A stretch of 64,000 bases of DNA from a virus, in the IMG/VR virus record IMGVR_UViG_3300045988_129927; one strand, written 5' to 3'. Both the position numbers and the translations under genes were made by a program. The number at the start of each line of letters is the position of its first letter. Position 1 is the stretch's first letter. Under the pieces are notes generated by a model. It was given only the letters and a program-made list of their open reading frames with translations. It had not been told where the DNA came from and made no database searches. Below, one piece after another: positions 53,137 to 54,546 of this stretch.

Positions 53137-54546
53137 TTAACCACGAATACGTTTAGTAGTAGGTTGTGCTGGTACTTCACGTACAATCACTTCACGTACT
53201 ACTTCATGTACCACTTCTTTGGTTTGTACAGGTACTTTTACGCCACCGAATACATAAGAGAGGCCAAGACCAATACCGATGTTACGGCGAGTGTCTACAT
53301 TGATACCAGCTTTAGATACCCATTTACCAGAATCAGAAATATGGGAAACACCAACAGCTGCGGCACCCTCGTTTTTGAAGTAGCCTGCACCGACGCCGAT
53401 AGCCGTTTGACCAGGAGCGTGAGGTTGTGGGATTGCAGCGATTGCGTTAGCGCCAGCAATACCTGCACGTGCTTCGCGACGGTTGTCATGGATTTCTTTA
53501 CGGATTTCGGCATTGTCACCATGCAAACCATTTACCAGTTTACGCAGCTCAGCGATTTGGTCATCTTGAGCTTCGTTCCAAGTAGTATGCTGGTTGATGG
53601 TATTGTTAATACCTTCAATTGCTTGGGTATTACTAGTAATGCGATTAGCATTAACAGCGATATTACTAGCATTGGTAGCAACACCATCTTTCAAGGTTTC
53701 AATTGCTTTCACATTATCGCTTACTTTAGTAGCAACAGAATAGAGTTGAGAACCATTGATAGCATCAGTAGATTCAGCAGAAACGCGACCAGCTGCTACA
53801 TTGGTAATGGTACGCTCGCTACCTTCTTTACCTACAGATACAGTGGCTACAGGTTTATGGCCTTTGAACGTACCGTATTCTACACCATTGATAATGGCGT
53901 TAGAAGTACCTACGGCTTTCTCTGTAGTAGAGAAAGAACCAATAGCCACATCATGCTCATTATTGGCTTTAGCATTTGTTCCTACAGCCACAGAGAAACG
54001 AGAAGTAGAAGTAGCGCCAGAACCAATAGCGGTAGACTGACCGCCTTCGGCACGTGTAGATTGACCAATAGCGGTAGACTGACCACCCAATGCGTTAGCG
54101 TGCAAACCCATTGCTACATCTGAGTTTTGCTTAGCATAAGCATGAGCACCTACGGCGGTAGAACCAATACCTTCAGTACGAGTACCTTTACCGATAGCGG
54201 TAGAGGACTGAGCAATAGCAGATGCTTCTGAACCAACAGCAGTGTTCATTGATTCCAATGCTTTGGCATGATGGCCGATAGCAACAGACATATCGCCTTT
54301 TACTACGCTACGTTGACCACCTACTACACTGTCTTTACCTTCAACAGTGTTATGGATACCAAATGCAGTATTGGAGAGACCTTTATTCACCAAGTCTGTA
54401 CCAATAGTAGTATTACCACTACCAGTTACAGTGATTTTATCGCCTTGTACAACTTGATAAGTACCTGTTACCGAATTGTCTGCCAACACAGTAGTAGATG
54501 CAGCAGCAGCAATTACGGCCAGGGCAATGTTAGTCATTTTAGTCAT
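53137..54546 (-). CDS. trimeric autotransporter adhesin (YadA/Ata-type) with signal peptide, head repeats, neck, stalk and membrane anchor
   Basis: Signal peptide MTKMTNIALAVIAAAASTTVLA|DN. Repeated head units (SVAIG..AKA, STAIGKGT, STAVGAHA, STAIGQST, SVAVGTNA, DVAIGSFS). Neck TITNVAAGRVSAESTDAINGSQLY. Heptad stalk. Anchor AGIAGANAIAAIPQ...GVGAGYFKNEGAAAVGVSH...NIGIGLGLSYVF, followed by a 36-aa tail. Confidence 0.85.
   Translation of the reverse strand: MTKMTNIALAVIAAAASTTVLADNSVTGTYQVVQGDKITVTGSGNTTIGTDLVNKGLSNTAFGIHNTVEGKDSVVGGQRSVVKGDMSVAIGHHAKALESMNTAVGSEASAIAQSSTAIGKGTRTEGIGSTAVGAHAYAKQNSDVAMGLHANALGGQSTAIGQSTRAEGGQSTAIGSGATSTSRFSVAVGTNAKANNEHDVAIGSFSTTEKAVGTSNAIINGVEYGTFKGHKPVATVSVGKEGSERTITNVAAGRVSAESTDAINGSQLYSVATKVSDNVKAIETLKDGVATNASNIAVNANRITSNTQAIEGINNTINQHTTWNEAQDDQIAELRKLVNGLHGDNAEIRKEIHDNRREARAGIAGANAIAAIPQPHAPGQTAIGVGAGYFKNEGAAAVGVSHISDSGKWVSKAGINVDTRRNIGIGLGLSYVFGGVKVPVQTKEVVHEVVREVIVREVPAQPTTKRIRG

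Follow-up and report, generated by a model that had tools for sequence, protein, structure and literature searches.

What does a gene for a bacterial surface adhesin do in the genome of a large, lytic-type phage? The question is raised by a locus in a 64,000-nt stretch of viral DNA from IMG/VR record IMGVR_UViG_3300045988_129927 (hereafter the window), in which an earlier note, made from the sequence alone, had described a complete YadA-type trimeric autotransporter adhesin (TAA) with an atypical C-terminal tail. The answer towards which we lean, by a narrow measure, is that an accessory gene long resident in phages would display an adhesin with a periplasmic tail on the infected cell, where it would have a role in aggregation.

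As judged from sequence and model comparisons, the gene product is very probably a bona fide short TAA of type Vc. The Pfam models for all three characteristic modules exceeded their curated cut-offs: YadA_anchor (PF03895) matched residues 373-433 with 58.3 bits (cut-off 22.7), YadA_head (PF05658) matched in three stretches with 50 bits (cut-off 25), and YadA_stalk (PF05662) matched residues 246-286 with 37.6 bits (cut-off 28.4). An LbR-like match and an NCBIfam match likewise back the TAA identity. In phmmer searches of the PDB, the head and neck matched the TAA entries 4usx, 3la9, BpaC, UspA1, EibD, YadA, and CbpF, and the anchor matched Hia and AtaA, with the alignments ending at residue 431-432. 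The AlphaFold2 (AF2) monomer model, built from 43 relatives with a mean predicted local distance difference test score (pLDDT) of 69, shows a beta-roll head (residues 25-249, pLDDT 70-90), one helix (265-370), and four strands (381-431). Its best Foldseek matches were the membrane anchors of Hia, AtaA, and YadA, with target-normalised TM-scores of 0.67-0.79. The claim that all modules are present in order was thus borne out by Pfam, PDB, and fold matches. The signal peptide has a basic n-region, a 16-residue hydrophobic core, and a V-x-A cleavage motif, and a simple signal-peptide heuristic found the adhesin to be the sole credible Sec-exported open reading frame (ORF) of the window. Both the signal peptide layout and the four-strand anchor are kept in all aligned relatives. 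The proposal of the earlier note that the architecture specifies insertion into the outer membrane, unlike that of a typical virion fibre, is supported by these two elements, which predict Sec export followed by membrane insertion. The features of the locus are listed in Table 1.

Table 1. Features of the adhesin gene and its flanks, with positions in the window
Feature	Position	Strand	Basis
Complete TAA coding sequence, 469 aa and stop	53137..54546	-	ATG start; ORF list; Pfam anchor, head, and stalk above cut-offs
Shine-Dalgarno AGGAA, 7 nt 5' of ATG	54554..54558	-	Sequence read
Sec-type signal peptide, residues 1-22, MTKMTNIALAVIAAAASTTVLA, cleavage before DN	54481..54546	-	n/h/c-region heuristic
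YadA-like head, left-handed beta-roll, with insert before neck, residues 23-245	53812..54480	-	Pfam, AF2, PDB matches
Neck, residues 246-272, TITNVAAGRVSAESTDAINGSQLY	53731..53811	-	Pfam YadA_stalk; best-kept module
Coiled-coil stalk and pore-traversing helix, residues 273-372	53431..53730	-	AF2 single helix
Four-strand YadA membrane anchor, residues 373-433, end ...GLSYVF	53248..53430	-	Pfam, Foldseek
36-residue C-terminal tail (predicted periplasmic)	53140..53247	-	Motif, conservation, dN/dS
Terminator-like hairpin, perfect 13-bp stem, 6-nt loop and T-run, 10 nt past stop codon	53084..53127	-	Terminator scan
Weak 8-bp AT-rich stem after upstream gene	54604..54628	-	Sequence only; not in terminator scan
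Antisense ORF, 319 aa	53164..54123	+	ORF list; stop-free length not conserved

The genome around the gene is that of a phage, as had been claimed. The ORFs of the window include a PHROG-typed DNA polymerase, a large terminase, a tail sheath, and virion proteins of the phiKZ group, with core matches to phrog_2927, 3242, 3430, 3184, 3185, and 2921. One virion protein is about 28% identical to a protein of the RSL2/FLC6/phiKZ group in 288 deposited records, and near-identical metagenomic contigs measure 237-241 kb. On the basis of its virion and replication genes, the window belongs to a distant phiKZ-like (Chimalliviridae-type) jumbo phage of more than 200 kb. No integrase was present among the ORFs scanned. 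Jumbo phages are common in the mouth, and 91.6% of jumbo viral operational taxonomic units were classed as lytic in one catalogue. Megablast revealed no DNA-level relative of the locus, or of a 61-kb relative, in 50,697 phage records, and tblastn with a protein of the 61-kb phage gave no match among phage records. With no cultured relative among them, these records therefore provide no host clue.

The closest relatives of the adhesin, taken as the best 120 (from 97% to about 45% identity), are encoded on contigs of about 60, 150, 185, 205, 237, and 250-260 kb, representing at least five backbones. Apart from generic JGI labels, the organism names attached to them are only viral ('MAG TPA ... 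Caudoviricetes', 'Herelleviridae'), as in the record 'MAG TPA: YadA-like protein [Caudoviricetes sp.]'. A search with an anchor and tail profile found the family on 39 IMG/VR viral contigs of the same size classes, and at a single tail-bearing locus in 185,579 bacterial and archaeal species genomes. That locus is situated on an 80-kb contig (CALHQV010000133.1, L006) of a Gram-positive metagenome-assembled genome labelled 'uncultured Gemella sp.'; the contig is 89-95% identical to the window and was probably binned there in error, by composition or coverage. The samples of the related contigs are human oral metagenomes, and all tail-bearing relatives are on phage-sized human-oral contigs. Each of the 47 complete loci is intact and includes both signal peptide and tail. 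Judged by sequence, phages of the human mouth are the sole carriers of the subfamily in all data searched.

Two members of the family deserve separate mention. The position downstream of the adhesin varies in content, as L006 has no counterpart of the 260-aa gene at 52283-53065 of the window. In relative P0047, encoded on a 73-kb contig, a 750-aa call joins about 260 unrelated N-terminal residues, in frame, to an otherwise normal member of the family; the family part begins with its own MKKH signal peptide, and the fusion is probably a gene-calling or read-through artefact.

If the gene were a recently captured host gene without a phage function, traces of its origin should be discernible, and two observations point that way. 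The gene is indeed richer in G+C than its flanks (0.42-0.49 vs 0.25-0.33), a local peak that the earlier note had taken as a sign of horizontal capture from a host, and the nearest named cellular relatives, obtained with a divergent tail-bearing query, are small Neisseriaceae TAAs of about 40% identity. However, it is the first two codon positions that hold the excess (GC1 0.57, GC2 0.49), because Ala and Gly make up 25% of the protein. At the third position the gene has a GC3 of 0.274 (0.18-0.33 in the 23 other window genes measured), and its preferred synonymous codons are the phage's own. GC3 and codon choice thus equal the phage norm, so a recent host capture is not indicated and the richness loses its meaning as a sign of it. 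The donor was also missing: the closest relatives are all phage-borne, and the scan of the species genomes returned only anchor-level matches (Sphingomonadales, Xanthomonadales) in addition to the probably mis-binned contig, that is, neither a close relative nor the tail in any other bacterial genome. In addition, the gene has been retained in synteny across jumbo lineages at saturated synonymous divergence (dS), and it is under purifying selection, the whole-gene ratio of nonsynonymous to synonymous divergence (dN/dS) against orthologues being 0.07-0.21. Recent capture is therefore largely refuted and scarcely credible.

Comparison of the window gene with L006, L001, and L020 showed that synonymous divergence is uneven along the gene, at 0.45 in the head vs 0.14 in the anchor for one pair and 0.87 in the anchor vs 0.13 in the tail for another. 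This indicates recombination within the family, with breakpoints inside the adhesin gene. The stalk region 53650-53730 contains an indel of exactly seven residues (one heptad) that distinguishes strain variants of 469 and 462 aa, and only stalk insertions set longer relatives (507-576 aa) apart. The intact loci, the low dN/dS, and the in-register heptad indel demonstrate functional constraint on the adhesin. On this comparative evidence, the gene appears as an old resident of the phage gene pool rather than a recent capture, inherited at a syntenic locus in the jumbo clade and exchanged between unrelated phage backbones.

The most unusual part of the protein is its C-terminus. As described in the earlier note, 36 further residues, which would be periplasmic, follow the ...SYVF of the last anchor strand. 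The idea that they stem from a frameshift was discarded, since the tail is carried by 119 of the best 120 relatives and by all 47 complete loci. It is composed of a variable linker, a conserved core VVHEVVREVIVRE, a variable Pro/Ala stretch, and a conserved end [KR][IV]R[GQ]; the only one of the 120 without this ending is a truncated fragment. The tail is rich in Val and contains Pro. Among 13 members, each less than 80% identical to the others, the mean pairwise identity was 75% for the neck, 74% for the tail core (residues 446-458), and 66% for the last five residues, compared with 63% for the barrel, 53% for the head, and 41% for the stalk. Residues R456, E457, and R468 are invariant in the alignment of 43 sequences, and the dN/dS of the tail is 0.10-0.12 at a saturating dS of about 1.3-1.5. 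The tail motif was found nowhere else in the 64-kb window, and Pfam gave no match to an SLH or OmpA domain in the protein at E ≤ 1.

The window TAA departs in this respect from the usual proteobacterial form, as its chain continues beyond the final-strand aromatic residue. The statement that TAAs terminate at this residue holds for most of them. In an exhaustive search, which was dominated by giant multi-repeat TAAs and served only for a census of C-termini, 103 of 148 other TAA cluster representatives ended in F, W, or Y and most of the others one or two residues later; two representatives, one from a Veillonellaceae bacterium, had coiled-coil extensions, and the tail occurred only in three small uncultured proteins. 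As a general rule, the statement fails for the approximately 12% of TAAs, mostly outside Proteobacteria, whose C-termini extend into the periplasm (bioRxiv 10.64898/2026.01.22.700529), and because of these the tail does not disqualify the protein from the TAA class. The described extensions are either a short coiled coil or a long coiled coil with an SLH or OmpA domain (Dorison et al. 2026). The proteobacterial exceptions in the 2026 survey, which does not mention phages, are 47 of 323 Neisseria and 43 of 406 Haemophilus TAAs, and their origin is unexplained. By its sequence, the tail represents a new, short kind of predicted periplasmic extension that is strongly constrained.

By analogy with described systems, the tail is probably a short linear motif on a flexible linker that docks on, or is shielded by, a component of the periplasmic envelope. 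Its most likely role would be that of a binding motif for a periplasmic partner or of protection of the C-terminus. TAAs of V. parvula are destabilised once their periplasmic domains are deleted (bioRxiv 10.64898/2026.01.22.700529), and the anchor of AtaA is bound by the periplasmic protein TpgA (PDB 9vnj; PMC12523085). There is also a slim chance that the tail acts like a TonB box, pairing as a beta-strand by beta-augmentation with host TonB or another periplasmic protein. The TonB box of TonB-dependent transporters and group B colicins has the consensus (D/E)-T-hydrophobic-x-V and pairs with strand beta3 of TonB (PMC5413942, PMC11658791). Like the box (ETVIV consensus), the tail is a short, extended, acidic, Val/Ile-rich peptide that would be exposed to the periplasm and tethered to an outer-membrane barrel, and some family members read KETVVVRE or KETVIVRE. 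However, the tail is C-terminal and the TonB box N-terminal, and the consensus Thr is missing from the majority of members, the window protein (REVIVRE) among them. The likeness is thus best in the branch of the 60-kb phages (ETVVV, ETVIV, or ETIVV) and weak in the window (EVIVR), and we regard it as a resemblance in sequence that offers a lead only. Should such docking be true, the phage would coat the dying cell with adhesin and at the same time tie up an envelope machine, which could shut TonB-dependent entry to competitors; a two-faced outer-membrane effector of this kind has no described counterpart.

Some indication of the hosts was obtained from DNA uptake sequences (DUS). The 154-kb backbone (L005) carries the 12-mer Neisseriaceae DUS AGGCCGTCTGAA twice (at 13496 and 19767), a number reached by 8 of 400 motif permutations, and the 61-kb backbone (L003) has two dialect DUS matches (at 6721 and 8607), a count reached by 2 of 400. 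On a 52-kb contig (L058), an inverted DUS pair at about 6300-6340 is followed by a T-run, terminator-like in form. The Haemophilus uptake signal sequence was absent from the backbones tested. Going by these motifs, some of the smaller carriers are likely to have Neisseriaceae hosts.

How might a lytic phage make use of such a protein? Established knowledge of TAA biogenesis suggests the following steps. During infection, the adhesin would be made in the cytoplasm and exported by Sec via its 22-residue signal peptide, after which the beta-barrel assembly machinery would insert it in the outer membrane of the host as a trimer with a 12-strand barrel (3 x 4 strands). The head-neck-stalk passenger would be threaded outward, giving the infected diderm cell a lollipop-shaped projection of roughly 20 nm, and the 36-residue tail would remain in the periplasm, where, to judge from TpgA and from the periplasmic domains of Veillonella TAAs, its docking would probably stabilise the anchor. 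Through the sticky head, the infected cell could adhere to its neighbours or to the matrix of the biofilm, and its burst would then be released beside new hosts in dental plaque or the tongue biofilm. An aggregation role, drawn from analogy, is tentative, and we would put its chance somewhat below even. Two considerations favour it: homotypic autoaggregation and biofilm formation are known functions of TAA heads (PMC7568254), and these phages inhabit a dense biofilm.

Its main rival, which we consider unlikely though worth serious attention, is that the adhesin forms a surface shield that excludes superinfection. A layer of adhesin would mask the receptors on the infected cell and on its debris, blocking the adsorption of competing phages and sparing the progeny from attachment to fragments of lysed cells. 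Outer-membrane lipoproteins such as Llp of T5 or Cor act in a similar receptor-blocking way. The molecular evidence for such a shield is the same as that for aggregation, and the occurrence of one family across at least five unrelated backbones in the same habitat would fit competition directed at the host envelope; moreover, YadA and Eib confer serum resistance among their other functions (PMC7568254; PMC4352079). On the other hand, neither the receptor nor the competitor is known, the lollipop is no obvious specific receptor blocker, and the head, far from bearing the signature of an arms race, is under purifying selection (dN/dS 0.07-0.27). The gene could alternatively be an accessory to lysis, in which the adhesin aids the neighbouring cell-wall hydrolases, for instance with the tail weakening or marking the outer membrane at lysis. 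The adhesin gene of the jumbo clade has a GH19 endolysin-like gene on one side and a Hydrolase_2 cell-wall hydrolase gene on the other; in the window, two tiny hydrophobic ORFs are placed between it and the endolysin-like gene. Since the 61-kb and 154-kb backbones have no adjoining lysis genes, 36 residues are too short to span the periplasm, and a full adhesive passenger would be superfluous for lysis, we judge this very unlikely. A structural role as a fibre of the virion is suggested by PHROGs, which places similar families under 'tail' (phrog_17426, phrog_26246), by a TAA adjoining the tail-fibre genes in E. coli phage PhiR12_3, and by cyanophage YadA-domain proteins that have been described as structural (PMC9146016). 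A Sec signal peptide and a hydrophobic four-strand anchor kept in all members do not suit a virion protein, and the gene is situated among small non-structural genes, at a distance of about 25 kb from the structural block (15-28 kb), and amid nucleotide-metabolism genes in other backbones; a virion fibre is therefore highly improbable.

Several points weigh against display for aggregation as well. The evidence does not separate aggregation from surface shielding. For the tail (residues 433-469), the AF2 model, a monomer only, gave neither a helix nor any confident structure (pLDDT below 50). The jumbo backbones, including the window, show no enrichment of Neisseriaceae DUS, and a heuristic search of the window detected no lipoprotein or other exported protein that would independently mark a diderm host. 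For the jumbo phage of the window, a Neisseriaceae host is proposed only tentatively. Finally, promoter-like sites were no commoner than in shuffled sequence in a promoter scan, and no promoter was assigned.

The gene forms a compact unit. The earlier note had described strong hairpins on both sides: downstream there is indeed a perfect stem followed by a T-run (53095-53126), but upstream there is only the weak stem, which is not convincing as an insulator. A strong hairpin (dG -18 to -30 kcal/mol) follows the stop codon of the orthologues in every backbone, with hairpin sequences unrelated between lineages, and an AAAGGAA-type Shine-Dalgarno sequence (SD) precedes the orthologues in every backbone. 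With SD and terminator present throughout, the adhesin gene is a self-contained, terminated unit. An apparent upstream motif (ACGTTTTAC-like) was dropped, as it overlaps the stop of the preceding gene in the 61-kb phage. The antisense ORF of 319 aa is present as described in the earlier note. It was rejected as a gene, as the antisense stretch without stops is anywhere between 91 and 371 aa long in the orthologues, and is regarded as a by-product of the codon composition of the sense strand.

In the jumbo clade, the conserved neighbourhood of the adhesin consists of the GH19-like gene, DUF7338, two small genes, the TAA, and Hydrolase_2. Searches of Pfam and PHROGs assigned no gene family to its immediate neighbours in the window, and Rfam gave no match near the gene. 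Near the adhesin, the 61-kb phage has ThyX, dUTPase, and exonuclease genes, and the 154-kb phage a DNA ligase and a ParM-like gene. Upstream in the window is an ORF-poor gap of 830 nt (55657-56488), bounded by the endolysin-like gene (56489-57295, phrog_181) and the next ORF; it contains a G+C-rich patch at about 55950-56400, without an Rfam match and with a fold z-score of only -1.16. The two tiny hydrophobic ORFs (55753-55830, 25 aa; 55653-55760, 35 aa and basic at the C-terminus) are immediately downstream and overlap the lower boundary of the gap; they could encode membrane peptides for lysis.

Elsewhere in the window, group I introns reaching the Rfam gathering score are located at 33576-33892 (+), 43036-43306 (-), and 43417-43767 (-), the first of which splits the large subunit of ribonucleotide reductase into ORFs 32701-33609 and 33941-35335. 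An HNH endonuclease ORF is at 28745-30028. The block lowest in G+C (45360-48716, 0.25-0.29) holds three ORFs of 341-373 aa without family matches, two of which show at most marginal mutual similarity (E = 0.005 over 64 aa), and here the window is about 3 kb longer than the related contig L001. A tRNA-Ile with anticodon TAT is encoded at 62333-62405, and a second tRNA (63942-64000) is cut by the window end.

TAAs are classic colonisation factors of bacteria, and here a whole subfamily appears to be resident in the phage gene pool of the mouth, kept by purifying selection in jumbo phages of the nucleus-forming type, for which a strictly lytic life is expected, and common to unrelated smaller phages. 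If surface display is true, lytic phages would alter the adhesiveness or the surface of their hosts in oral biofilms, with consequences for plaque ecology and phage spread. The tail family may also account for part of the unexplained extension-bearing Neisseria TAAs.

The window adhesin is not the first TAA in a big lytic phage. A 2013 paper had already pointed to yadA homologues of lytic phages as putative virulence genes (PMC3728262), and several anchor-bearing families exist in PHROGs. The cultured Burkholderia jumbo phage BCSR5 (227 kb; MW460245.1 85013-88798) encodes a complete TAA of 1,261 aa, QRE00188.1, which is annotated as hypothetical and has a signal peptide, a head, ten stalk/neck repeats, and an anchor ending ...GYKF. 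A YadA anchor is also present in Burkholderia jumbo phage FLC9, and a fold search of viral models adds phiEco32, SKML-39, Salmonella phage FSL SP-076, Proteus phage P59, Erwinia phages Y2 and Yoloswag, and Yersinia phage fHe-Yen9-04. Among phage-carried anchor-bearing TAAs belong also the Eib proteins of E. coli, which are prophage-borne. Our literature search uncovered no functional work on any anchor-bearing TAA from a lytic phage. The earlier remark that no characterised example is known from a large virulent phage is thus literally true, although uncharacterised ones exist in the cultured jumbo phages BCSR5, FLC9, Yoloswag, and fHe-Yen9-04. New are the phage-restricted subfamily and its constrained tail.

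The deposited phage TAAs (BCSR5, FLC9, Yoloswag, fHe-Yen9-04, phiEco32, FSL SP-076, SKML-39, and PhiR12_3) resemble the window protein in being phage-encoded and in possessing a YadA anchor, but they are less than 35% identical to it, and those whose ends were read (BCSR5 and PhiR12_3) stop at the last aromatic residue of the anchor, without a tail. The Neisseriaceae TAAs (N. arctica, N. sicca, N. chenwenguii, and Uruburuella suis) share the signal peptide, YadA-like head, neck, stalk, and four-strand anchor, that of N. arctica being about 41% identical over head and neck to a phage-family adhesin. They differ in ending ...VGYQW, with no tail and another anchor subtype, while the window protein is phage-encoded. 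As a genetic unit, the gene resembles a phage moron in its compactness, its own SD and strong terminator, its dispensability for every known core function, and its movement between phages; it differs in having no demonstrated promoter of its own and in residing in lytic-type jumbo phages instead of the classical temperate setting. The tail, in turn, shares with the periplasmic domains of TAAs from Negativicutes, Fusobacteriia, Synergistia, and Synechococcus, and with TpgA of Acinetobacter, the presence of sequence or a partner beyond the barrel in the periplasm. In contrast to those domains, it measures only 36 residues, is Val/Pro-rich with no AF2 helix and no SLH or OmpA domain, and carries a motif outside the described types on a TAA of the proteobacterial kind. 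The tail would thus extend the recent finding of periplasmic domains in TAAs by a short type with a compact and testable motif.

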